DNA of 47,631 nt from a virus. Its lineage: Duplodnaviria; Caudoviricetes. The notes under the pieces were generated by a model that made no database searches, had not been told where the DNA came from, and worked only from the letters and a program-made list of their open reading frames with translations. Positions 4,735 through 47,631 of this stretch are shown here, piece after piece. The stretch is from positions 1 to 47,631 of IMG/VR virus record IMGVR_UViG_3300031924_000072. One strand, written 5' to 3'. How positions within the stretch are numbered: position 1 is the first letter of the stretch; the number at the start of each line of letters is the position of its first letter. The position numbers and the translations under genes were made by a program.

Positions 4735-6381
4735 TCACAGGATGACGGGGTAAGGCACGTAGCTGGTTTCGCTGTCGTCCTCGGGCAACTGCGCTTCGCC
4801 GGCATAGCCGCTGGCCAGCACCTGGCCATCGTCGAGCAGAAACACCAGGCCCTGCTCAGAGCTGGACCCATAGGACGAAAGATCAACCACGCGACGCTGC
4901 GCAATGCGCACCAGTTCCACGCTGCTGCGGTTGGTGGCGTCGCCCAGTCCGAGTGCCCCGTTGCCGTTGTAACCCCAGGCGTAGACGGTGCCGTTTTCCA
5001 ATAAAGCAGCGCCATAGTTGTAGGAGCCGGTGCCGCCATGCACGGCTTTGACTACGGTATTGCCCACCGGCACTTGCACGAAGTTGCCGCTGTTGCTGCC
5101 GTTGGCGTTTCCCCAGTAAGCACCAGCACCGCAGGCCCACAGCGTCTTGTCGGTTTTCTTGAGGTAAGTGAGCGGATAGTCGTAACTGCCGGTGTAAGCA
5201 TCGGCCACGTTGGTGGCCACCTGTATCGGGGTGAACTGGTTGGCAAGATTACCGTTTCCCAATTGACCGTAGTCGTTGGTGCCCCAAGCATGCAGGGTAC
5301 CGGTACTGTCCAAAGCAAATGCATGTACATAAGCACCGAACACCTTGACGATGGTTTTGCCAGCGAGACTGCCCCCCGCACGCGGCATGGCGACGTTGGC
5401 CTGGTTGCTGCTGCCATCGCCCAACTGCCCGTTGCCGTTGTATCCCCACGAGTACAAAGTGCCATCGTTCTTGACGGCGTAATAGGCGGTGTAACGCTCG
5501 CGCCCGGCGGCAATCTGGGTGATGCCGGCAAGCACCGGTAACTGCACCAAGTTGTTGCGCTGGGTGGTATCGCCCACGCCCAGCTGCCCATAACCGTTGT
5601 AGCCGCAAGCATGCACAGTGCCATCGCTGCACAGGACCAAGGTGCTGTTGTAACCCTCAGTGCCGCAGTTCAGTGCCAGCTGGATCACGGTTTTGCCGGC
5701 AATTGAGTTGCTGGCATTGGCACTCATGTTGTACGGCACCGGCTGGTTGGTCGTGCTGCTAGTACCGAGTTGGCCGTAACCGTTATAGCCCCAGCCCCAT
5801 AGCTGCCCGTTCTTGTCGATGCAGTAGCCGTTGGTGTCCTGGCTGTAACAGAGTTTCGAAGCCCCCGGAAACCCGGGCGGGAATGCGGTGCGTGCTGGGT
5901 ACGAGCGCGCATAGGTGGTCCCATCGCCCAGCTTCCAGTTGGCATTGCGCCCCCAGGCGCGGATGCTGCCATCGGTCATGATCAGACCGAACTGGCGGTA
6001 GCTGTTGGGTTGTGTGTTGCTTGCGTTTTCTGGCAATTTCAGCGCCTTGGTGCCTGAGCGCACATCGGGTGTCGCCCACACCGGTACGCCCTGTGCACCA
6101 ATGGTCAGCACCTGCCCGGCTTGGCCCACGGGCAAAGCGACCAGCTGGTTGCCATCGAAGTAGATGACCTCCCCCGGCAGGCTCGAGACCCCTTGGGTGC
6201 CTTGCGCAAACAGATCCCAAGCCGGGGAATTGGCGTGTGGTGTCACGCTCGTGGTGGCATCGGCGAGGCATACAAAGCTATCGCCGTTGTGGCCGACCAC
6301 GTCCTGGCGGGCGTAAGTGGCACTGGCGTCATACGCACCCCGCCAGGTAAAGGCAATCTTGCCCAGAGAAACGGTTCCCAT
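4735..6381 (-). CDS. RCC1/BLIP-II repeat beta-propeller tail-associated protein 2
   Basis: Multiple (L/V)xxWGxNxxGQLG repeats; N-terminal WRGAY...Y..QDVV module. Confidence 0.85.
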   Translation of the reverse strand: MGTVSLGKIAFTWRGAYDASATYARQDVVGHNGDSFVCLADATTSVTPHANSPAWDLFAQGTQGVSSLPGEVIYFDGNQLVALPVGQAGQVLTIGAQGVPVWATPDVRSGTKALKLPENASNTQPNSYRQFGLIMTDGSIRAWGRNANWKLGDGTTYARSYPARTAFPPGFPGASKLCYSQDTNGYCIDKNGQLWGWGYNGYGQLGTSSTTNQPVPYNMSANASNSIAGKTVIQLALNCGTEGYNSTLVLCSDGTVHACGYNGYGQLGVGDTTQRNNLVQLPVLAGITQIAAGRERYTAYYAVKNDGTLYSWGYNGNGQLGDGSSNQANVAMPRAGGSLAGKTIVKVFGAYVHAFALDSTGTLHAWGTNDYGQLGNGNLANQFTPIQVATNVADAYTGSYDYPLTYLKKTDKTLWACGAGAYWGNANGSNSGNFVQVPVGNTVVKAVHGGTGSYNYGAALLENGTVYAWGYNGNGALGLGDATNRSSVELVRIAQRRVVDLSSYGSSSEQGLVFLLDDGQVLASGYAGEAQLPEDDSETSYVPYPVIL

Positions 6382-6413
6382 GAATAGTCCTTGAAGAAAT
6401 GGAAAATCGGAAT

Positions 6414-8087
6414 TCAGAACAAGATCGGGGACGGGGCGTAGCGATGGTCGTTGTCATCGTCACCCGTCTGGCCGTAACCCCCATAGCCGGTCGACATCAC
6501 TTGCCCATCGGCGGTGAGGAAGTGGTAGGCGGACTCGTGGTACGCCCCACCCTCGGTGCAACCGACATGGCCCGAACGCGAGAAGTCCACGATCGGCCGA
6601 TCAATCAGCACGAAACTGTTGGGTGTCTGCGATTCATTGGCGTAGCCATTACCCGCGCACCCCGTGGAACCCATGCCCCATCCGACCGCCTTGCCGTCCG
6701 ATCGCAAGGCCATGGCTGAAGAGCCATAACACCCCCCATACATGCGCAGCTTTTTGACTTGGGTGAGAGCGTCGCCGCCGATGGTTACCCAAGAGCTGCG
6801 GTTGCCGTTGCCGCCTCCGATGTTGAAGCCGTCGTAGCCGGTATGGCGTATCGTGCCGTCCTGCATCAGCGCCAGGGTGCGACCATAACCTCCGGATATC
6901 GCGTATGCATCGACCACGCCATCGAGTACCTTGTAGGGAAACAGGACGTGGCCCGTGAAGATGTCCCCCGTGTATCCAGTCCCCCAAATCCCCGAGGTCT
7001 GGCCGCTGTCATGTCCCCAGCGATAGAGCGCACCATCTTCCAGAATAACCCCGTAGCTGCGGTAGTACTGACTACCCGCGACCCAATGGGCATCGGACTC
7101 GGAGCAGAAGACTTTCTTGACGCGCTTCTCGGTTCCCCAGGGCATCAACAAGCGATGAGTGGATTGGTCACTGCCAAAACCTGTCGAATTGGCTTCGCCG
7201 GCAACCCAGAGTTTTCCGGTGTGGTCGATCAGGTAGCTGGCCGCATAGGTTCCGCCAGAGAGGAAGACTTCTTTGATCGGCGTGTCTGCCGTAAATGGCA
7301 CCAAGCGGGGCGTCGAGACATTCGACGTATGCCCGAGGCCGAGGCTGCCTTGCTGGTTGTAGCCCCAGACATAAACCCGACCTTGCGCGTCCAGACAGGC
7401 TGCGGTGCGATAGCCGAAATAGTCGTGCCCCGTGAAGACCCGTTTGACAACAGCGTTGCTCGGCAGATCGCCATAACCGTTGATCTTTCTGGGCACGGGG
7501 TTGGCACTGCCGGTACCGGAAGCCAGACCCGCATCGTTGCCCCCGGCATGCCAAAGACCGCCATCGACATCAAGGAAAAAGCTGTCATCCCAGACGCAGG
7601 TGGCGGACACGATGCGTGGTGTTCCTGGCGGAAATGCCGTGCGCGCCGGGAAGGTGCGACCGATGTCACCCGTATTTCCCGTGCCCTGCTGGCCGTTGAC
7701 CGCCCGGCCCCAGGCGCGCACCGATCCATCGTTCATGATGGCCGCCATGAAATAGCTGGAGCTGTGCCGATCGGCAGCAGCCCGATCGGTGTTCATCAAG
7801 GCCGTGGCGATCGTGCCGTTGCGGTCGGCCATGAAGCGGAACTCCACACTTCCAGCGCCGTTGGAGTGGAGCACCATGCTACCGATCCCGCCCACAGACA
7901 CCCCACCGGTGAGTAAATGTCCCTTGAGCACAGCATCCTGCTGGCCGAGCGCAAAGGGCTGCGGCTGGCCATGGCGTATCACCCAGGCGCCGCCTTCCTT
8001 GAAGACCACATCCCCATCGCGGTAACTGAGATACGGGGAGTAGATGCCACACCAGCGATAGCCGAGCGCCGAGATATCGAGATTCAC
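6414..8087 (-). CDS. RCC1/BLIP-II repeat beta-propeller tail-associated protein 1
   Basis: DGSVRAWG..NGQQG, VYVWGYNQQGSLGLG and MSTGYGGYGQTG repeats; N-terminal WCGIY...Y.DGDVV module. Confidence 0.8.
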   Translation of the reverse strand: MNLDISALGYRWCGIYSPYLSYRDGDVVFKEGGAWVIRHGQPQPFALGQQDAVLKGHLLTGGVSVGGIGSMVLHSNGAGSVEFRFMADRNGTIATALMNTDRAAADRHSSSYFMAAIMNDGSVRAWGRAVNGQQGTGNTGDIGRTFPARTAFPPGTPRIVSATCVWDDSFFLDVDGGLWHAGGNDAGLASGTGSANPVPRKINGYGDLPSNAVVKRVFTGHDYFGYRTAACLDAQGRVYVWGYNQQGSLGLGHTSNVSTPRLVPFTADTPIKEVFLSGGTYAASYLIDHTGKLWVAGEANSTGFGSDQSTHRLLMPWGTEKRVKKVFCSESDAHWVAGSQYYRSYGVILEDGALYRWGHDSGQTSGIWGTGYTGDIFTGHVLFPYKVLDGVVDAYAISGGYGRTLALMQDGTIRHTGYDGFNIGGGNGNRSSWVTIGGDALTQVKKLRMYGGCYGSSAMALRSDGKAVGWGMGSTGCAGNGYANESQTPNSFVLIDRPIVDFSRSGHVGCTEGGAYHESAYHFLTADGQVMSTGYGGYGQTGDDDNDHRYAPSPILF

Positions 8088-36823: not shown

Positions 36824-37306
36824 TTACTCCGAAAGCAGGGCGAGACGGAAGCTGGGCTTGCCCACCTTCACGGTTCGCGCGGGGATGAATTGCTCGCGCA
36901 GAGCACTGGCCCAGGCGGAGAACTTGGTCTCTGAGACGCGATAGCTGACGTCGATAAATTCGCGGGGGTTGTCGCCGTTGGCGGCAATGCGCGCATCTAG
37001 GTTGGCCAGCAGCGCCTGATCCCATTCGACTTTCTTGGGCAGGTCGGCAGTGATACGCACGTCGCCATCGTCGAAATGCACCACGCCACTGTCTTTGGCA
37101 GCGACCAGGCGCAGGTGCTTGGCGCGCTCGGCATACTTGAGGTTCAGGGCATGCTCGATGTGATCGACTTGCGCCCTCGCGGTGGCCAGTCGGTCGGCGG
37201 CCAGCGTCTTGAGCTGGAACAGGCTGCGGGCATCGAATGCAGCCAGATCAGTGGCCGGGATGGACAGAACGTCCTGGTGTTGCGGGGGCAGATGGCGTTG
37301 GCTCAT
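36824..37306 (-). CDS. Conserved hypothetical phage protein
   Basis: LPKKVEWDQ..L, Y.VSE.K..AW and ARTV..GKP.F motifs; GGAGG RBS. Confidence 0.7.
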   Translation of the reverse strand: MSQRHLPPQHQDVLSIPATDLAAFDARSLFQLKTLAADRLATARAQVDHIEHALNLKYAERAKHLRLVAAKDSGVVHFDDGDVRITADLPKKVEWDQALLANLDARIAANGDNPREFIDVSYRVSETKFSAWASALREQFIPARTVKVGKPSFRLALLSE

Positions 37307-37515
37307 GCCACACCTCCTGCAACCACACGCGACGATGTGCTGCTGTGCAGACTCCTCGCCTCGTACTCCTCGATGTCCTCGACGCGGTAGAGGACGCGGC
37401 CCTGCAACTTCAGATACACCGGCCCGATACCGGCAGATCGCCAGCGCTCGAGCGTGGCCTCCGCGACATTCCAGCGCTCAGCCAGTTGGCGCTGATTCAG
37501 GTGTTTGACACTCAC
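37303..37515 (-). CDS. Excisionase/AlpA-like HTH protein, copy A
   Basis: HLNQ.QLA.RW....TLERWR....GP.YLKL.GRVLYR; AAGGAG RBS. Confidence 0.85.
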   Translation of the reverse strand: MSVKHLNQRQLAERWNVAEATLERWRSAGIGPVYLKLQGRVLYRVEDIEEYEARSLHSSTSSRVVAGGVA

Positions 37516-37569
37516 GTTGATCTCCTTTCAGGTGATTGCGAAAACGTGAGTGCAGTTTGGAATTCAGGG

Positions 37570-37611
37570 GGTGGGCAAACCGGTGGGCAAGGTGGACAGA
37601 ATGGGTGGGCA
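37570..37611. repeat. Four GGTGG(G/A)CA direct repeats upstream of the early/replication operon
   Basis: Copies at 37570, 37582, 37591 and 37604. Confidence 0.7.
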
Positions 37612-37682
37612 GATCAGGCAGTTGATGCCTGTGCCGGTCTAAACGGGGATGTTCTTGGAGATTCGGCCGTGCAAGGCCTGGA

Positions 37683-37889
37683 TCAGGGGCTTGCGCTGTC
37701 GGCCTGAGGCCGCATGCTTTTCAAGCAGCACGACTCGAATGCTTCGATGTCTTGTTGACGGTATAAGACCCGACCATGCAACTTGAGGTAATCGGGGCCA
37801 AGTTTTTCAGAGCGCCAACGCTCAAGAGATGCTTCGCTGACTTGCCAGCGTTCAGCCAGTTGCTTTTGATTCAGGTGCCGGATTTCCAT
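37683..37889 (-). CDS. Excisionase/AlpA-like HTH protein, copy B
   Basis: Clear paralogue of 37303-37515. Confidence 0.8.
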   Translation of the reverse strand: MEIRHLNQKQLAERWQVSEASLERWRSEKLGPDYLKLHGRVLYRQQDIEAFESCCLKSMRPQADSASP

Positions 37890-37916
37890 GGTGACTCATT
37901 GCTGTTGAATGACCAC

Positions 37917-37947
37917 CATTGAGGCGCTGGTTGGCATAGAAGCCAAG
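37917..37947 (-). promoter_or_regulatory. Conserved promoter-like motif, copy 4
   Basis: CTTGGCTT-N10-CAGCGCC-TCAATG, ~28 nt before ATG 37889. Confidence 0.7.
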
Positions 37948-38014
37948 CGCTTTTACCCCCTTCAGCAAGAGGATGTGCTGTCCGAAAAATGCATGCAAAT
38001 TTCGGACGTAGAGC

Positions 38015-38302
38015 TCAGATCTGCGCTTCGATGCGAAGGAAAGCTTTGTCGTTCCGTTTGTAATCAGGACGCGGCCCGGGAAATTTACCGGGGAGAATCG
38101 TGAGGTGCCGAATCTCGCGGATGTGGAACAGCTTCCAGCCCACGTACTCCCCGGACTCACTCCCGCCTTGCACTTGGTAAGCTCGAAGCGCCGGGTGTCC
38201 TTTTTTGTCTGTACCACAGCAGTGGGGCTCAACCACCCTCGGGAATCCGTCATAGGTGAAGGACAGTAGGTGGCGGTCGTGGATGGCAGATGAAATGGTC
38301 AT
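38015..38302 (-). CDS. Stand-alone WYL-like domain protein (95 aa)
   Basis: AI.....L.F.Y....R.VEPH..G........LRAYQ......GWKLF....I matches the WYL fold pattern. Confidence 0.7.
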   Translation of the reverse strand: MTISSAIHDRHLLSFTYDGFPRVVEPHCCGTDKKGHPALRAYQVQGGSESGEYVGWKLFHIREIRHLTILPGKFPGPRPDYKRNDKAFLRIEAQI

Positions 38303-38328
38303 GGCATGTCCCTGGTCAGTTTCAATTT

Positions 38329-38841
38329 TCAACGCCCCTCGAAGACCGCCAGCAGCTGGTCCAATTCGACGATCTTCAATCTGGCGGCATCGAGCACCGG
38401 CTTCGGAAAATGCTTGGCATAACTCTGCCTTTCCGTCAGGTCGACACCCAACAGCAAACTGATCGCTTTTTTGCAATCCGCACATTGCGCGGCAGGATAT
38501 TTCCCAAGGATCGCCAGCAGCAGCCCTTCGAAGCAAGGAATCGAGCCGATCATGTTGATCTTCGCTTTGCGTGCTTCCTTTTTCAGCTTGTCCGTCCAGG
38601 GGATATCCGTGTCGAGCAGTGCTACGCGTTTGTCAAAGCTTGCGATTCTGGCCAGTCGGGTTGCATGATCGATGACGTTCTCCGGCCCTTTGCCATGCGC
38701 ATTGCGCACAGTGACAGCCACTCCAGCGCCGCCGGAGCAATAAAGTTCACGCAGGTGCTTGAGGAACGCTTCCTCCGAATCCCCCTCGCCAACGATCAAC
38801 AGCGTTTTGCGAACCTGATGTTGTTTTCGAGCCATCACCAT
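38329..38841 (-). CDS. RloB/AbiLii-like TOPRIM protein
   Basis: LIVGEG.SE..FL, LLDTD and S.PCFE.LLL motifs. Confidence 0.8.
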   Translation of the reverse strand: MVMARKQHQVRKTLLIVGEGDSEEAFLKHLRELYCSGGAGVAVTVRNAHGKGPENVIDHATRLARIASFDKRVALLDTDIPWTDKLKKEARKAKINMIGSIPCFEGLLLAILGKYPAAQCADCKKAISLLLGVDLTERQSYAKHFPKPVLDAARLKIVELDQLLAVFEGR

Positions 38842-38844
38842 CTC

Positions 38845-40029
38845 TCACAGTTGGGGAATGGCGCCGTATGCACCGGCCATGTATTTGGCGTAGAGGTTAT
38901 CGTCGGCACGAACACCCTTGACGCTGTCCAGTCGCCAGGCATCGCTCTCGCAGTTGTCATCCTTTTCGACCAGTACCACTTGCGCCTTGTGCAGCAGGCT
39001 CAACACCTCGATTGAGTGGCAGGTAAAAATGATCTGCGCATTGTGCGGGTTGGTTTTCGGAGAAAAGAACAAATCCAGCAGAGGGGTGAGCATGTGCGGG
39101 TGGAGATCTGCTTCAAGCTCATCGATCACGACCAGACCACCGTGCTGCAGCGCCGGCAAGATGCGGGACAGCAATATGAATGCGCCCTGGGTACCACTGG
39201 ATTCATGCAAAAACATCAAAGGATGTTCTTTGTCGCCTACGCGATGAATGCCGAAGGGGATGTGAATCTCTTCGGTTTTGCCACTTTCACGTGTCACCGT
39301 GTGTTTCTCGACACGCACATCCGACAGGCCAAAATCCCACTGATGCAACAGGGTCGCCATCTGGCCGCGAATGGCCGTATTTTTGGCATAGAACTCGGAG
39401 GCACGCATGATCTGATCTTGGTCCATTGCCTGGCGACCGAGACCATGGACGTTACTCAGGACATTGGCCGTCACCAGTTTCAAGGCCAAGCCAACCTCGT
39501 ATTGGGCGGCCGTCGAGATCAGCGATGCGTTTTCGCGAACCTTCTCAGCTTCCTTTTGAAGCATGCCGAACTGCTGCTGTTTGACCGTATAGCCCTTGCG
39601 TTCAGGATTCCATTCGCGGGTAAAGACATACGAGAATGCACGGCTTTGTTTGCTGTAAAGCGACTCGTGATAGACGCGATCCCTTGAGGCAACCAGACGG
39701 TAGCGCCATTCACGGCCGTCCAACTCGAACTCCACCTCAAAGGTGCTGGGCTCGGTCGTTGCCGAAAAGTGGGCTGCCAGGGGAATCGGTTCGTCTGGCT
39801 TGGCATGAAACGAGTGCTTGACGAACCAGTCGACGAAGACCAGCGACTTGATCAAGGTTGTTTTACCGCTTGCGTTGGCGCCTACGACCGCGATGGCTTT
39901 GGAAAGGCGGGTGCCAAGAGCAGACGTGCAGGACCGGCCATCCTCAGGGGTGTGGCGGTTCAGTTCCAGCGATATCTGCACGGGCTCTCTGAACGACTGG
40001 AAGTTTTGCAGGGTGAACGAGCGAAGCAT
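38845..40029 (-). CDS. RloA/AbiLi-like ABC-type ATPase (AAA_21)
   Basis: NFQSF, GANASGKT, ESSGT, VIDELE..LHP, Q.IFTCH and Y..G.YGAIP motifs. Confidence 0.88.
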   Translation of the reverse strand: MLRSFTLQNFQSFREPVQISLELNRHTPEDGRSCTSALGTRLSKAIAVVGANASGKTTLIKSLVFVDWFVKHSFHAKPDEPIPLAAHFSATTEPSTFEVEFELDGREWRYRLVASRDRVYHESLYSKQSRAFSYVFTREWNPERKGYTVKQQQFGMLQKEAEKVRENASLISTAAQYEVGLALKLVTANVLSNVHGLGRQAMDQDQIMRASEFYAKNTAIRGQMATLLHQWDFGLSDVRVEKHTVTRESGKTEEIHIPFGIHRVGDKEHPLMFLHESSGTQGAFILLSRILPALQHGGLVVIDELEADLHPHMLTPLLDLFFSPKTNPHNAQIIFTCHSIEVLSLLHKAQVVLVEKDDNCESDAWRLDSVKGVRADDNLYAKYMAGAYGAIPQL

Positions 40030-40049
40030 GACGTGACTCTTTGGGCGAT

Positions 40050-40130
40050 TTCAACAAGTTTTTGTATGTTACGCCTTTAGACTGGTCAAATCAAGCCATA
40101 AAATACAACATTCAACAAAATATTGTTGAA
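40050..40130 (-). promoter_or_regulatory. Sigma70-like promoter and palindromic operator of the ATPase-RloB-WYL operon
   Basis: -35 TTGATT (40094-40089), 17 bp, -10 TAACAT (40071-40066). Palindrome TTCAACAA-AATA-TTGTTGAA at 40111-40130; extra half-site at 40050-40057. Confidence 0.6.
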
Positions 40131-40151
40131 GTTTGCGTTGCGAGGCTAGTT

Positions 40152-40613
40152 TCATAGACAAAAGCCCAGCAACCGTCGCTGCTCATCCCAGTCCACAGGC
40201 ACGTCCGCCTGGCGGCCCCGGACTGCGTGAAGATTGAGGTGGCGCGGCTGGCGACCATCCAAAACAGCCTGCACGATGTCGGGTGCCAGGCGTGTAAGCC
40301 GCATTACCTCTGCGACCCACCCTGGCTCGAGTTTCAACTGTCGCGCCAGTTCGGTCGCGTTGGAGACCTCGCCACTGTCGAGCAGCTTTTGCCAGTAAAA
40401 AGCCTTGCCGATCGTTCGGATCATGGGCAGGTCAAATGATGAGCGGACCTTGGCATCTTCCTGGCCAGGCGGCGCAATCAGCAGTTTGCGGGTGTGACGA
40501 CGCTTGATGGTCAGGGGGACGAAGGTCACCGCCGAGCCCTGGCTCTGGTATTCACGCGACGGACCCGATACGGATATCTCAATCTTGCAACGTTGCGGGG
40601 TGGATTGGCTCAT
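40152..40613 (-). CDS. Recombinase-associated HTH-like protein
   Basis: KAFYWQ.LL.SG.......LA......V....RL..LAPDIV.A.L.G pattern typical downstream of large serine recombinases; ATGA-coupled. Confidence 0.7.
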   Translation of the reverse strand: MSQSTPQRCKIEISVSGPSREYQSQGSAVTFVPLTIKRRHTRKLLIAPPGQEDAKVRSSFDLPMIRTIGKAFYWQKLLDSGEVSNATELARQLKLEPGWVAEVMRLTRLAPDIVQAVLDGRQPRHLNLHAVRGRQADVPVDWDEQRRLLGFCL

Positions 40614-42758: not shown

Positions 42759-42852
42759 GGCAGGCTTTCGTGATGAAAAACTGCCACCATTTCACCGGCA
42801 GGTCGCCGGAATTCCGAGCAGGGAATTGCGGACGAATGCGGGTAATCGCCAA

Positions 42853-43180
42853 TCAGAGGCCGGTAGCCACGAAATAGCTCGCCGCAGTGGTCAGCATGCC
42901 AACGCCCAAAAGCGCAAAACCCAAGATCAAAAGGACGAAGCCAAGTTTAATTTCGATGTCGAGCAGATGTTTGGTTACGCCGCCAACGATAGGGTCGCTT
43001 TGCCGTTGATTGGCAGCGATCCTGGCCAACTGATCGATAGACTGTTCGTGGGCCACCAGGCAGTAAACAACCCACTTAAGGATTGCCTTTACCCGCCATG
43101 CCAACAAGATGGAACCAATGCCAGTAGTGAGTGCGCCTGAAAACCTTCAGCAACGTGTGAATATCAGCGGGTAATTGCAT
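42853..43180 (-). pseudogene. Small two-TM membrane protein, apparently frameshifted
   Basis: GGAG RBS + ATG 43180 gives MQLPADIHTLLKV. Removing one base of the T4 run (43140-43143) joins it to SGALTTGIGSILLAWRVK...ATGL* (~108 aa). Confidence 0.5.
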
Positions 43181-43221: not shown

Positions 43222-44178
43222 TCAGCGCACTGGCGGCTGACCGTTACGCACGAAACGATCGAAGGTGTTTTCAAGGCCATCGTCGTCATCGTCCATCTTG
43301 TCTCGCTCCCAGGGCTTGACCTCGGGCGGTAGGACCAGCAGCGTCATCGTTTGACGGTAGAAATCAGACGCGATGCGCATCTCCCGCGCCACCATGCCCT
43401 CGGGCTCGTGCGTAAACCAGATGCTCGCATCGATCGGCGTGCCCAGCCGATCGACGTTGGTGTCCGTGCCCAAACGTGTGGCACTCCTGGCAGGCAGTGG
43501 CCGTCGGTGACCGTTGGCCAGCCGTTTGTTCAGATGCATGGAGAGCCACTTGCCCGACTCACTGCCGCAAGCCCACTGAACGATCCCGCTCTGCGACATG
43601 ACCAGCACCGCACGCTGTGGTGTGAGCTCCAGCCACTTGAGAATTGCCGACGTCATGGACACGCCATACCGATCCGCACACGCGCCGAGCACATCCAGAT
43701 CGATGGCCGTCCCCTGGATCTGCCGACGATAATCGTCGGCAGGCATCAGCAGGTACGACGCAAAGGTGTTCGCTTCTGACTCAATCTTTCTCTCGTCGCT
43801 GTCCCACTGAGTGGTGTCCACCTCGCTGCAGTTGAAAGACGTCTGCAGATGGCGATGCACCAGGTAATGCCCCAGCTCGTGTGCCAGCGTGAAGCGGATT
43901 CGCCCCGGTGAGCTGATCGCCTGGTTGTAGATGATGGCCCAGTTGCCCTTGCCCGGCGTATCCGCATTCAGGTTGAACAGCGCCCCCTCGAACTCCGGGT
44001 CCATCGCCTCGCCCTGAATGGTGATCGGCTCGCCGGTCTGGAAAGTACCCGGCACTTCCCGAATCAGCGCTTCCACATCGACCGGGAATCGCTCGCCACC
44101 ATGGACGGTGTGAAACTGATCCAAGAGCTTGTTCAGCCGGTTGGCCCAAGGCGCCGGCTTGTTGGGCGGAGCACTCAT
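43222..44178 (-). CDS. IrrE/ImmA-family Zn metallopeptidase, CapP-like
   Basis: R.RFTLAHELGH (HEXXH), E.EAN.FASYLLMP, RYGVS..S HTH and GAF-like C-terminus; ATGA-coupled to the HTH gene. Confidence 0.9.
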   Translation of the reverse strand: MSAPPNKPAPWANRLNKLLDQFHTVHGGERFPVDVEALIREVPGTFQTGEPITIQGEAMDPEFEGALFNLNADTPGKGNWAIIYNQAISSPGRIRFTLAHELGHYLVHRHLQTSFNCSEVDTTQWDSDERKIESEANTFASYLLMPADDYRRQIQGTAIDLDVLGACADRYGVSMTSAILKWLELTPQRAVLVMSQSGIVQWACGSESGKWLSMHLNKRLANGHRRPLPARSATRLGTDTNVDRLGTPIDASIWFTHEPEGMVAREMRIASDFYRQTMTLLVLPPEVKPWERDKMDDDDDGLENTFDRFVRNGQPPVR

Positions 44179-44501
44179 CCTTGGGTTTTCTTGAGGGTCT
44201 TCAGGATCTCAAGGAGCTGATGCTTGGTCTCGGGCTTGAGCGTCTTGTAGTTCCGAAAGAACGCCTTGTCAAAGGCGTCCTCGGGCTGATCGGCCTGTTC
44301 GTTGTGCGCCAGAAACTCAGGCGTGACGTTCAAGACGGCGGCGATGCTGGCCAGTTTTTCCATGGTGGGGTTGGCATCGTCGTTGTTCTCCAACTCCCAC
44401 AGATAGCTCTTGCTCATGCCAGCTGCGGCAGCCAGTGCGTCGAGACTCAACTTCTGCTCACGGCGCAGCCTGCGAATTTTGTCACCCAGTGGGGTTGCCA
44501 C
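44175..44501 (-). CDS. XRE-family HTH repressor, CapH-like
   Basis: LG.KIR.LR....LSL..LA...G.SKSYLWELEN and C-terminal FFRNY..L....K; GGAG RBS + GTG. Confidence 0.9.
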   Translation of the reverse strand: MATPLGDKIRRLRREQKLSLDALAAAAGMSKSYLWELENNDDANPTMEKLASIAAVLNVTPEFLAHNEQADQPEDAFDKAFFRNYKTLKPETKHQLLEILKTLKKTQG

Positions 44502-44599
44502 GGTTTCTCCTGTGTTCTCTCAGCCCCACGCGAACAGGGGACGGGTAGCGCTTTGCACAGACCGAGATATTACGTTATTTCGAACGAATCCGCACCGGC

Positions 44600-44628
44600 T
44601 TGACAACACAATCATCCACCGTTAAATT
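44600..44628 (+). promoter_or_regulatory. Sigma70 promoter of the divergent 411/343-aa operon
   Basis: TTGACA (44600-44605), 17 bp, TAAATT (44623-44628). Confidence 0.7.
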
Positions 44629-44767
44629 CCATCAAACACCCGATATAGCGAACAAATAAATTTTGCTTTGTTGTGCGATACGGTGTTGAGAACAGTGTAA
44701 CCAACCCAGGCCTCTCGCGCACACAAGAAGTCATCGGCACGGCGGCCCAGCAAAAAGGAAAGACAAG

Positions 44768-46003
44768 ATGGCCGCCTTCAACTACCGTCAACTCATCCGC
44801 CAAATCCCTGCACGGACTTGGGAGTTTTACTTTCAGTCTCGCAAGCTGGAACTGCCTGACCTGCTTGCCGGTGACAATCTGATCAGCAGCGTCATCGACA
44901 TCATCGATGCCTTGCCTGCGGCACAGGGTGAAGCCGTCTATGCCGAATTGCGGCGCGTGCACGACTTGGCCAACGGGCGTGGTGTCGATGCCCTTCGTAA
45001 CACCGCACCGCCAGACTCCACGATCCATGAGGATTTCACGAAGTTCTCCAGCGATGCCGAGCGTGCCTTGTGGGTCATGGCCAACTGGCCTGACCTGTTC
45101 GCCACGGCCGAGGCCATCTACGCGGTGAGCCTGCGCATTGGCAAGCGTGGGTGGAAACGCTTGCAGGTGCCGCCCGTCGATGCGCTGTTCCGTGGCCAGG
45201 AAGACATTCGCGCCCTCGAGGTGGCACTGGCCACCGCATTCACGCCGCGCAAGGGGACGCCGCGCGCCTGTCAGATCGACACCCTGGACCGGCATCTGGA
45301 TGGTGGCGTGCAACTGGGCATCCTCATTGAGGACAACGCCCAGCGTCAGCTGGAATTTGGCGACGACAACCGGGCGCACTGGCGTGACGTCCGACCACCC
45401 ATGGCCATGGATGTCGTCATATACCCGGCCAGCGGGGTGATTGATGTGCTGGCGCCCGGTGGTGCCAAGACGCAGCAGACCTTGCTGGAGCACCTCGGCA
45501 AGCATGTATTCAAGCAGGTGCTGCAGCCCCAGGACATCGAGAAGCCGATGTTTTTACTGAACCGTCTGCGGGATGGCTTCGAGCTTTTCGATGACAGCGA
45601 ATGTGACCTGGCGGCACACCGGGTTGAGCGCATCCGTTTGTCACAGGCGAAAGTGCGGGCCATCCATCCCCCGATCTGCGACTACCAGATCAAGCCGCCG
45701 GGGGAGAAAGACGCGCCCGATGTGCTGGCCTGTCTCGCTGCTCAGCAAATCAGTCCCATCCTGATGGGACAAGGCTTCAACATCATCGACGCCGTGGTCT
45801 CGCTGTACTTCGAGCCGCTGCAGCCGGGAAAAGCCAGCCGGGTGCTGCACATCGATCTCAAGCAAAGCGGGATTAGCAATCTGCGGGACATGGAAGAGGC
45901 TGACGCCCGGCTGGTGGAATCGCTGCTGCGCGCACTGGGTGTCATGCAGTCACCCGCGACGGCCAAGCTGGCGGAGGAAGCCGAAGGAGTCATGCATGAA
46001 TGA
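44768..46003 (+). CDS. Uncharacterised 411-aa protein
   Basis: Long ORF with AAGGA RBS; no catalytic motif recognised. Confidence 0.8.
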   Translation: MAAFNYRQLIRQIPARTWEFYFQSRKLELPDLLAGDNLISSVIDIIDALPAAQGEAVYAELRRVHDLANGRGVDALRNTAPPDSTIHEDFTKFSSDAERALWVMANWPDLFATAEAIYAVSLRIGKRGWKRLQVPPVDALFRGQEDIRALEVALATAFTPRKGTPRACQIDTLDRHLDGGVQLGILIEDNAQRQLEFGDDNRAHWRDVRPPMAMDVVIYPASGVIDVLAPGGAKTQQTLLEHLGKHVFKQVLQPQDIEKPMFLLNRLRDGFELFDDSECDLAAHRVERIRLSQAKVRAIHPPICDYQIKPPGEKDAPDVLACLAAQQISPILMGQGFNIIDAVVSLYFEPLQPGKASRVLHIDLKQSGISNLRDMEEADARLVESLLRALGVMQSPATAKLAEEAEGVMHE

Positions 46004-46970
46004 GGCGGTCGCGGTCATGAACGACCAGGGGCTGGCCGAGATCTGCCGCCTGCTCGAGCGTGAAGACATGCTGATCTCCCCCGACGCGGTCTGGCTTTCG
46101 AGCCGGCCCGGGTTCTATGGCCATCTGCTGGCCCTGGATGCCATCGCCGTCAGCCGCGAGCGGGCACTGGACATCCTCTGCCCGGAGTGCGGCACCGAGG
46201 CCATGCGGCCGCAGCCACACGCCGCGCCAGATTCGCAACCCTATCGCGGCTATTGCCCGGAATGCGGTTGGGTTGGACTGGCGAATCAACAGGCGCACTT
46301 TTGGCAGGTGCAACCGCAGAAGCTGGCCAAGTGGTTGTCAGCAGGATTGGGGCTGGCACCGCGCTATGCCGTCGAGCCGATCGTCGACAACGTCTTGTGG
46401 CGGCTGGGTGAGTTCGAGCATCGACGCCGGCGGCACACGGTTTTCTTTGGACGTCGCCTGAGCGCGATGTCCGATCCAGTGGCCGCCAAGCTGGCGCAAT
46501 TGGCGGCGCCCGGCGCTGAGGTGATCATCACGGCGGGAGAGCCTGCGTCCTTGCTCGGTACTGCCTTGGGCGATCGCCTGTTGGTGCCGCTGCGGGCCAT
46601 TGCCCACATCCGCAAATCCGGCCTGGTGATCGAGAACCTTGAGGCATATCTGACCCGCCCAGCACCGGTGCAGGAATCGACGGAGACGTCCCTGCGACTG
46701 ATGCACACCCAGCGCGTGGCGCTGATCAATGGTGAGCCGATAGACCTCTCACCACAGGTCTATCTCTTCCTGAAGATTCTGGAAGACGCCGATGGCGACG
46801 AAGTGCACAAGCGGCACATGGCCGAAGGGCTGGGCCTTGAGCCTGGCACCAGCTTCCGGACGGCAGACATTTTCAAACGCCACAAGCAGGTCTACGCCAC
46901 ATTCGTCGACAAGGACGACAAAGGGCACTACTGGCTCAAGCCTGACTTCGTGATTCTGGAAAGGGGGTGA
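45996..46970 (+). CDS. Uncharacterised protein with Zn ribbon and probable C-terminal winged HTH
   Basis: CPECG-x-CPECG; C-terminal INGEPIDLSPQVYLFLKIL...V....MAE.LG resembling an OmpR-type wHTH; start (MNEAV) after GGAG overlapping the upstream stop. Confidence 0.75.
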   Translation: MNEAVAVMNDQGLAEICRLLEREDMLISPDAVWLSSRPGFYGHLLALDAIAVSRERALDILCPECGTEAMRPQPHAAPDSQPYRGYCPECGWVGLANQQAHFWQVQPQKLAKWLSAGLGLAPRYAVEPIVDNVLWRLGEFEHRRRRHTVFFGRRLSAMSDPVAAKLAQLAAPGAEVIITAGEPASLLGTALGDRLLVPLRAIAHIRKSGLVIENLEAYLTRPAPVQESTETSLRLMHTQRVALINGEPIDLSPQVYLFLKILEDADGDEVHKRHMAEGLGLEPGTSFRTADIFKRHKQVYATFVDKDDKGHYWLKPDFVILERG

Positions 46971-47026
46971 CTCGACAGCCAATACCCTGACTTCCAGCAT
47001 CCACCCAACCTTGAAAGGATTTTGAA

Positions 47027-47251
47027 ATGGCCGGTAAAAACCAACATGTAGTGAAGCGCGACGACGGCTGGGCTGTGCGCGGCGCAGGCAACCAGCGAGA
47101 CACCTCGCATCACCGCACGCAGTCCGAGGCCGAACGGGCCGCTCGTGACATCGCCATCAACCAGCGCAGCGAGGTGTTGATTCATGGCGAGAACGGTCGT
47201 ATCCGTGAGCGCAACAGCTACGGCAACGATCCACACCCGCCCAAGGGCTGA
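47027..47251 (+). CDS. DUF2188-domain protein
   Basis: NQHVV....GWAV..AG......H.TQ.EA..AAR.IA.....E..IH...GRIRE.NSYG.DP.PPKG. Confidence 0.88.
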   Translation: MAGKNQHVVKRDDGWAVRGAGNQRDTSHHRTQSEAERAARDIAINQRSEVLIHGENGRIRERNSYGNDPHPPKG

Positions 47252-47317: not shown

Positions 47318-47521
47318 CGGTGCATCAATGGCAATCGATTGTCACGAAAGGGTTTCTGCGTGTGCTCGGCTGGCGAAGTTCTGGCCGATTTTTTGAGAAC
47401 AGAGACCAGAAAAGAGTCAAACTTGGCGGGTCGGTGGGCGCTTTCTGGCCGGCGCGATATGGCCTGTGGCACACGCAAAATCGGCAGAATCCCCGCACAG
47501 TGTGGGGAAAGCACAGATGTG

Positions 47522-47550
47522 AAAAAGCCCAACCGAGAAGGGTTGGGCTT
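47522..47550 (-). terminator. Intrinsic terminator just inside the right prophage end
   Basis: Minus strand GCCCAACC-CTTCTC-GGTTGGGC followed by TTTTT. Confidence 0.7.
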
Positions 47551-47631
47551 AGAAATTGGTGGTGGAGTCTAGCAGCTCCGCAGACACACCTGCCTAAGGT
47601 GTGAGGTTGATTGTCCTGAAATTACCCCCCG

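Follow-up and report, generated by a model that had tools for sequence, protein, structure and literature searches.

In the SXT/R391 family of integrative and conjugative elements (ICEs) the repressor SetR, inactivated upon DNA damage, guards the strong promoter of a two-gene activator, SetCD, a comparable arrangement being described for AcaCD of IncA/C plasmids, and promoters activated by SetCD or AcaCD contain no -35 element, an element-specific motif occupying its place (PMC4542580). Another mobile-element switch, composed of a repressor and a zinc peptidase, is represented by ImmR/ImmA of ICEBs1 and phi105, and the pair of CapH and CapP is mostly found in front of defence operons (Lau et al. 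2022, 10.1101/2022.04.27.489752). The present analysis deals with a locus at positions 43222-47251 of a 47,631-nucleotide (nt) viral DNA from Caudoviricetes (IMG/VR record IMGVR_UViG_3300031924_000072; the whole stretch is called here the window), in which genes of the CapH and CapP type are located beside two genes, A and B, encoding hypothetical proteins. Its organization would follow SetCD-like logic with unrelated parts, which are not known to play such a role. Based on sequences, structural models and analogy with described systems, we find it quite probable that the locus is an induction switch, in which the CapH/CapP-controlled A-B pair would activate in trans the early replication promoter of the prophage. 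Identities of the genes, folds of the models, anatomy of the promoters, co-variation of promoter repeats with protein B, fusions of A with B and gene order are the observations on which this proposal is built.

The earlier note on this DNA, made by a model from the sequence alone, reported an XRE-type helix-turn-helix (HTH) gene coupled to a HEXXH peptidase gene and divergent from the operon of A and B. Both open reading frames (ORFs) were confirmed. The peptidase ORF (43222-44178, minus strand) encodes a 318-residue protein of the CapP type, that is a zinc peptidase stimulated by single-stranded DNA (ssDNA) and built of HEXXH peptidase, HTH and GAF parts, which matches the PADLOC capP model at 2e-68 and CapP of PDB entry 7t5t at 7e-73 across residues 8-291. 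It has HELGH at residues 100-104, E135 and the cysteine-switch residue C117. When published residue roles were mapped via alignment with Thauera CapP (7t5t), R93, W202 and Y274 turned out to be kept at positions reported to bind ssDNA (Calloji et al. 2026, 10.64898/2026.05.16.725639), and C117 aligned with Thauera C113 in the loop of the cysteine switch described by Lau et al. (2022, 10.1101/2022.04.27.489752). The HTH ORF (44175-44501, minus strand) encodes a 108-residue repressor of the CapH type (PADLOC capH, 2e-25; PDB 7t5u, 9e-15; C-terminal dimer domain of 7t5w, 8e-6), which keeps S32, W35 and the cut site F82-R83, the triplet FFR occupying residues 81-83. A Phe-Arg bond given in the earlier note as the place of CapP attack was named correctly, cleavage at F82|R83 being reported by the same authors. 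At positions where E. coli CapH has DNA-binding R40 and R44, the window protein has N40 and N44, which suggests an operator different from that of known CapH. Judged by their sequences, the two proteins are close relatives of CapP and CapH, sharing with them homology over the full length, the cysteine switch, F82-R83 and the location of capH-capP divergent from and upstream of the controlled operon. The difference is that known pairs control an immune operon, while here a prophage regulator pair would be under control. By analogy with CapP/CapH biochemistry, ssDNA-triggered cleavage of CapH and subsequent derepression may be expected at this locus.

The operon formed by A, B and a DUF2188 gene has a strong sigma70-type promoter TTGACA-17-TAAATT (44600-44628, plus strand). 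Its near-consensus sequence, already pointed out in the earlier note, is present, but taken alone is at chance level (one occurrence in the window vs 1.0 expected in shuffled sequences). For comparison we used a close set of 71 partly redundant loci (21 viral and 50 genomic); among 68 of these, TTGACA stands in front of A in all but two (66/68). Two predicted CapH operators surround the promoter: TTACG-N6-CGAAC upstream of -35 (44570-44585, plus strand) and a site downstream of -10 (44638-44653, plus strand), which is degenerate here; several relatives, inspected by eye, have at this place the complete palindrome GTTCG-N6-CGAAC. Among 66 loci with TTGACA the GAAC half-site occurs at the upstream position in 65 and at the downstream position in 64. 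CapH would bind to both operators and, as expected for the CapH/CapP family, would repress the 44600 promoter until it is cut after damage. The last gene, DUF2188 (47027-47251, plus strand; Pfam, 5e-24; PADLOC PDC-S16, 1e-38), looks like a passenger, which in other clades is gone or relocated. Its presence is one more likeness to CapH/CapP systems, as DUF2188 in the controlled operon was remarked by Lau et al. too, who refer to Burroughs and Aravind (2020) for its occurrence next to genes of HTH proteins and metallopeptidases (10.1101/2022.04.27.489752). An S24-type self-cleaving repressor, the lack of which had been noticed before, was indeed not found: Peptidase_S24 gave no match in the 47.6-kb record and capH is its only HTH_3 gene, with no other XRE repressor detected. 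Since this linear virus contig is approximately 80% complete, the absence holds for 47.6 kb only.

Sequence searches in Pfam, NCBIfam, PADLOC and PDB gave no names for A (44768-46003, plus strand; 411 residues) and B (45996-46970, plus strand), only weak zinc-ribbon matches being observed. PHROGs assigned A to a family of unknown function, PADLOC had no match for A and one match for B at E 0.049, and 50,697 phage records searched by tblastn with A, B and a divergent A yielded nothing. Structure comparison by Foldseek, which had been proposed as a check, and by VIA gave modest scores, pointing to an RdgC/CENP-N-like fold in A and an OmpR-type winged helix in B. The model of A (predicted local distance difference test, pLDDT, 87) is composed of a helical N-terminal domain and an alpha/beta fold similar to CENP-N/Chl4 (Foldseek, 5e-5; VIA, Z 9.0, root mean square deviation (rmsd) 3.1, 108 residues aligned) and RdgC (Foldseek, 8e-5, with a low template modelling (TM) score of 0.2 (0.19); VIA, Z 6.2). 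In BFVD protein A matched phage RdgC; at the sequence level no RdgC-type match was found for it. The same two neighbours, RdgC and CENP-N, are reported for another clamp, YejK (PMC11229321). The most likely start of B is ATG at 45996, because close homologues have about 324 residues and the Atlas record begins at residue 20. By the same reasons the start giving 343 residues, taken in the earlier note, was rejected in favour of 324.

In the model of B (pLDDT 92), the predicted activator subunit, an N-terminal domain with a clade-specific four-cysteine ribbon is followed by a nuclease-like middle part and a C-terminal winged helix of the OmpR/PhoB type. The latter superimposes with the DNA-binding domain of VicR (VIA, Z 8.5, rmsd 2.5, 87 residues aligned), and Trans_reg_C is annotated in 10% of members of the Atlas cluster of B. 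The middle domain exhibits weak similarity (Z 5.1-5.5) to N.BspD6I, VC1899 and Bax1. In 48 divergent sequences it keeps W-x-L-G and F-x-R-R-L, acidic residues being present in 50-67% at five positions, and within residues 120-215 of these sequences neither a conserved Lys nor an HGxD-SxK-like motif was found. The four cysteines are invariant in 96 close homologues, while in the 48 divergent ones the first of them is Cys in 11 and roughly one sequence in four has the cluster, so that the zinc ribbon is not a trait of the family. Of the former description of B as a zinc-ribbon and winged-HTH protein, thus, the winged helix stood and the ribbon became a clade-specific property. No receiver-domain Pfam match was found in 96 members of the B cluster, the fold matches covering the winged helix alone.

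The early replication and recombination operon starts with an HTH_17 gene (37303-37515, minus strand), followed by genes for AAA_24, helicase, PD-(D/E)XK and D5 primase. In front of it there are four direct repeats TG(C/T)CCACC, the TGCCCACC array (37570-37611, minus strand; spacing 13, 9 and 12), predicted to be the binding site of B. The -10 hexamer CAAACT (37554-37559, minus strand) is located 10 nt past the last repeat and has no -35 partner. The array is the sole site in the record that passes the array-plus--10 rule with a score of at least 20. The array is kept in close relatives, with the -10 element varying around xAxxxT, and distant clades have other words at fixed geometry: TGAGGAA (spacing 13, 9 and 12), GTTCGCCA, CCTACC, CCTCAG, CCTCCC and TCTCCC. 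The second Methylococcus element (L079) is of the GTTCGCCA type and L162 of the CCTACC type. For the divergent set, comprising 169 further loci, a content-free rule was applied, which requires direct repeats with an 11-12-nt period ending 9-10 nt before -10. Such arrays were found in 83 of 141 independent loci vs 8 of 705 shuffled sequences, and all 83 are situated 50-65 nt before the start codon. Of the promoters of this kind only one (46/47 and 83/83, together 129/130 without it) has a -35 match exceeding three of six positions. Ahead of the array there is a terminator in 38 cases of 83 vs 7 of 249 shuffles and in 24 of 46 vs 6 of 138. Activators of the PhoB/OmpR type share with B the winged-helix effector fold; this domain in PhoB binds direct repeats of about 11 nt, which replace -35, and PhoB targets have the anatomy of class II activator-dependent promoters. 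By this analogy the early promoter has the anatomy of the same class, as described also for targets of SetCD and AcaCD (PMC4542580).

Co-variation of the repeated word (box) with three proteins was estimated in a non-redundant set of 26 independent loci (<75% identity, strict boxes), which together with the content-free rule makes it the clean test. Box distances correlated with distances of B at 0.48, of A at 0.20 and of HTH_17 at 0.10. The partial correlation for B, given A and HTH_17, was 0.50 (p 0.0005), and for its helix-turn-helix, given also the N-terminal part of B, 0.36 (p 0.0005); the partial values for HTH_17 and A were 0.05 (p 0.34) and -0.25. The nearest neighbour predicted the box exactly in 13 of 26 cases by the B helix-turn-helix, in 6 by A and in 2 by HTH_17. 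In 15 loci of the first set, those of its most diverse clade, the B helix alone was favoured (partial correlation 0.46, p 0.001). The control for linkage has only two informative loci, in which box and B are far apart, and in both of them the nearest B predicts the box while the nearest HTH_17 fails. A sliding-window scan of 30 loci with relaxed boxes placed the two best of 366 windows in the B helix-turn-helix.

Gene order was surveyed as suggested in the earlier note, that is with phage neighbourhoods set against defence islands, and appeared to be that of a phage family. In the close set, counting loci with enough flank, B follows A in 68/68 loci and DUF2188 in 61/62, while capH (65/65), capP (59/59) and DUF2924 (46/49) precede A. 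The early block, recognized by Pfam in the window as D5 primase/helicase/AAA_24, is located directly downstream in 37 of the 71 loci and beyond the recombinase genes in 20, to which type the window belongs; 14 loci do not show it. In loci arranged like the window the operon extends into the right prophage end (47550-47562, no strand assigned), and read-through therefore cannot reach the early genes. Of 27 alignments with relatives, 17 lose similarity at 47562, and a tRNA 3' end is present at this place in 6 of 9 relatives scanned. In the divergent set B follows A in 154/159 loci, HTH_17 is downstream in 112/117 and a phage backbone gene is nearby in 116/122, while capH/capP is present in 75/114. 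Thus, the A-B pair is constant and its sensor is exchangeable. Many of the 39 loci devoid of capH/capP have a co-oriented ORF of 239 residues, some have one of 413 residues and some nothing; in a similar case that was scanned (L154) the co-oriented ORF is an M78 peptidase. The A-B pair is a fixed part of a prophage family with serine recombinase and DUF2924; over the window Pfam also finds lambda-like head genes, tail genes and two methylases next to DUF2924 and the large serine recombinase. A gene for A was registered in 33 of 401 genomes of a phylum sample (~8%), and its family amounts to 1214 clusters at 50% identity.

Four natural fusions have A and B in one ORF: L177, L354, L355 and gp6 (751 residues, hypothetical) of Acidithiobacillus phage AcaML1 (JX507079), which surfaced with profile hidden Markov models only (E 2e-29 and 2e-35). 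AcaML1, listed as a prophage (PMC3826726), has the same backbone and differs in that capH and capP were not found among nine genes tested; in this region (L357, 3281-6600) the sensor slot before gp6 contains a PIN gene (gp7) and an HTH_17 gene annotated as excisionase (gp8). In the fused clade of L354 and L355 it is not HTH_17 that comes after the box promoter: a small ORF rich in Cys and a gene for a sigma-70 region 4 protein are found there. No description of the A-B pair or its promoter was found in the literature searched, with subscription papers, AcaML1 papers and bioRxiv supplements being outside its coverage, and the accessible part of a Methylococcus prophage survey contains neither the word "repressor" nor "activator" (PMC12924245).

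Based on these data the following course of events can be imagined. In the lysogen CapH would keep the 44600 promoter shut and the early promoter would be silent owing to the missing -35. Upon damage ssDNA would activate CapP, CapH would be cut at F82|R83, and A and B would be produced. Winged helices of B may then line up head to tail on the array in the place of -35 and, in the manner of class II activators, recruit RNA polymerase, which is what the anatomy of the promoter suggests. Protein A, which in some phages forms one chain with B, is probably needed as its partner and might be a dimeric clamp. Its obligatory participation, probably as a DNA-encircling dimer that keeps B on the array, is the least certain part of the model. 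A two-subunit activator of the lytic cascade was one of two options offered in the earlier note. An activator-type promoter, a box that follows B, A-B fusions and the fixed position in prophages speak for it, though all of the function is inferred.

As compared with its closest counterparts, the proposed switch differs in several respects. SetR cleaves itself through RecA, while here a separate peptidase is employed; SetCD and AcaCD are relatives of FlhCD, while A and B are modelled as RdgC-like and OmpR-winged-helix proteins; and SetCD/AcaCD have 11-19 target promoters, while only one was found here (PMC4542580). FlhC or FlhD are not among Pfam matches or fold lists of A and B, which excludes nothing, Pfam FlhC/FlhD models missing SetCD as well; the matches obtained point to other folds. 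ImmA is RecA/RapI-dependent, and derepression in this case acts directly on excision genes, without an A-B tier (10.1101/2022.04.27.489752). In contrast to PhoB/OmpR activators, with no receiver domain found in B, control of the output would lie in synthesis and in the partner protein rather than in phosphorylation.

Several points weigh against the role assigned to A and B. When 46 loci were pooled, box distances agreed more closely with HTH_17 (rho 0.59) and with A (0.53) than with the recognition helix of B (0.38), and the partial correlation of the B helix, given HTH_17 and A, dropped to 0.04 (p 0.26); the pooled test is dominated by between-clade differences and does not single out B. With unanchored picking of boxes, which was out of register at some twelve of 50 loci, the B helix gave 0.07 vs 0.25 for HTH_17. 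The anchored picker, its four patterns having been selected when the data were already known, found boxes in 47 of 50 loci; L001 was dropped from this set as its B is cut, mis-picks L009 and L021 were kept, and L177, L139, L089, L121 and L115 had been dropped beforehand. The best window of the scan (r 0.33) is inside the permutation range (mean 0.26, max 0.41). As the loci are related, Mantel p-values are overstated, and since the C-terminus of B usually adjoins the box, linkage can add to the signal. The strict array rule failed in 58 of 141 loci; it also missed arrays visible by eye in L308, L354 and L355. Fold scores are middling (Z 8.5-9 for A and B, TM 0.2). Finally, there is one box array in the whole record and none before the recombinase operon, so the regulon looks small, and the model does not explain excision and switching on of late genes, a second array not being found.

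The pooled correlations are an argument for reading the repeats as a site of some other phage protein, for instance of HTH_17 regulating itself, or for B being a repressor of the early promoter, with A-B having a separate role. We hold this for very improbable. The same HTH_17 N-terminus occurs with different boxes and different B helices (L161 and L162; L153, L174 and L176), in L149 HTH_17 resembles that of the window, the box is TGAGTAAT and B is of the type that matches this box, HTH_17 has no independent signal within clades, and arrays are present also where HTH_17 does not follow; as to repression by B, a promoter devoid of -35 hardly needs it. Slightly less improbable is that the array serves as an origin with iterons or a recombination enhancer bound by B, with A as a clamp loading replication or excision proteins. 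Such a role is in line with resemblance of A to the clamps RdgC and CENP-N, with iteron-like repeats and with replication genes downstream. It is difficult to reconcile with the fixed distances to -10 (9-10 nt) and to the start codon (50-65 nt) in all 83 strict cases, with the location of the array after a terminator and with its presence before a plasmid-borne operon of the ubiquitin-like kind.

A damage-inducible defence system in the slot of CBASS (cyclic oligonucleotide-based antiphage signalling systems), the other option of the earlier note, was not supported and seems the least plausible of these alternatives. In this case A-B(-DUF2188) would be a GAPS4-like ring with a nuclease. CapH/CapP usually precede defence operons, DUF2188 matches the candidate defence model PDC-S16, the middle of B is weakly similar to nuclease folds and one plasmid copy stands before a Bub-like operon. 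GAPS4 also consists of two adjacent genes, encoding a predicted ring subunit and a nuclease-fold partner with a link to DNA damage (PMC13748975), and GAPS4b, predicted to be a DNA ring, is the nearest named Atlas cluster to A (0.80, 138 shared features), which is a lead only. Neither KwaB nor GAPS4 is present in the fold lists of A and B, and this excludes nothing. On the other hand, GAPS4a has an active HGxD-SxK site of PD-(D/E)xK type (PMC13748975), which B lacks, having a winged helix in addition, and the 48 divergent sequences contain no conserved Lys or similar motif in the middle of B. PADLOC matches of A and B are almost nil, and backbone genes surround the pair and B accompanies A at the frequencies given above, unlike patchy cargo such as AbiL. 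Besides that, a toxic system at the head of a lytic operon would be fatal to induction of the prophage itself.

If the induction switch with A-B as activator is true, it would be the first case, within the literature searched, of a CapH/CapP immune regulator serving as a prophage switch, and induction would have a route without need for RecA-driven self-cleavage. It also provides a circuit of induction, open to testing, for a large prophage family not studied so far, to which AcaML1 belongs, assigns a predicted function and target site to two large hypothetical families and, through a series of naturally occurring helix/box pairs, yields orthogonal sets of activators and promoters. One can go further and suppose, rather speculatively, that A-B is a new class of activators, in which an RdgC/CENP-N-type clamp holds a partner composed of a disarmed nuclease and a winged helix on the repeats. 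A GAPS4-like architecture of sensor and nuclease would then be turned into a portable master switch, which is placed behind various stress sensors, has a readable helix-to-box code and runs prophages (in ~8% of genomes of the phylum sample), satellites and a defence operon of the ubiquitin-like kind; through the clamp, activation may depend on the state of DNA. We regard such a generalization as doubtful.

The A-B pair with its box leads non-phage operons as well, which speaks for the activator reading. On a Candidatus Tenderia plasmid (L358, CP013100, 8989-13670) A, B and a box array with CATAAT are followed by genes for multi-ubiquitin, JAB-like and ThiF proteins; control by CapH and CapP is frequent among Bub operons (10.1101/2024.11.21.623953), and this copy reads best as an activator recruited to a defence-like operon. 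On other non-phage elements (L308, 5995-13164; L353, 9269-19890; L351, 5159-10443) A-B is followed either by a rep-like gene (Phage_CRI, E 3e-4) together with genes that by eye resemble type I restriction-modification subunits, or by an AlpA-like gene and a DUF927 primase. A homologue of A from Ralstonia megaplasmids (L073, 15055-16284; 59 records) is often labelled in GenBank as glycine hydroxymethyltransferase, probably wrongly; in this element A-B is present and capH/capP was not detected. Two genomes contain two elements each, 50-60 kb apart, with different A-B clades and boxes (G001:C15, L052 and L074; G003:C5, L066 and L079), as is expected if boxes stop cross-activation between prophages.

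At the end of the prophage an inverted repeat is followed by TGGTG (47520-47562), which in relatives abuts the CCA end of tRNA. The tRNAs abutted near position 12790 in L022, L024, L026, L028, L031 and L033 are Phe(GAA) in four and Ala(CGC) in two of nine loci scanned, several different tRNA 3' ends being thus used by the serine-recombinase element. Variable cargo occupies 37636-40160, between a recombinase accessory gene and the box promoter. It includes an AbiLi/AbiLii pair (PADLOC, 4e-77 and 2e-20) and a second HTH_17 gene (37683-37889), and contigs from three runs skip it. Contigs of RNA runs extend across the entire region and are uninformative on expression. Two neighbouring RCC1-repeat proteins are encoded in the tail region (4735-8087). 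Upstream of the recombinase operon relatives have CCGCA-like words with a period of about 10 nt (in the window approximately 42810-42860, minus strand, before a 78-residue ORF), and TTCGCAATCACC is common to this upstream region and the HTH_17 leader in some relatives; these words are possibly a site of a second regulator.

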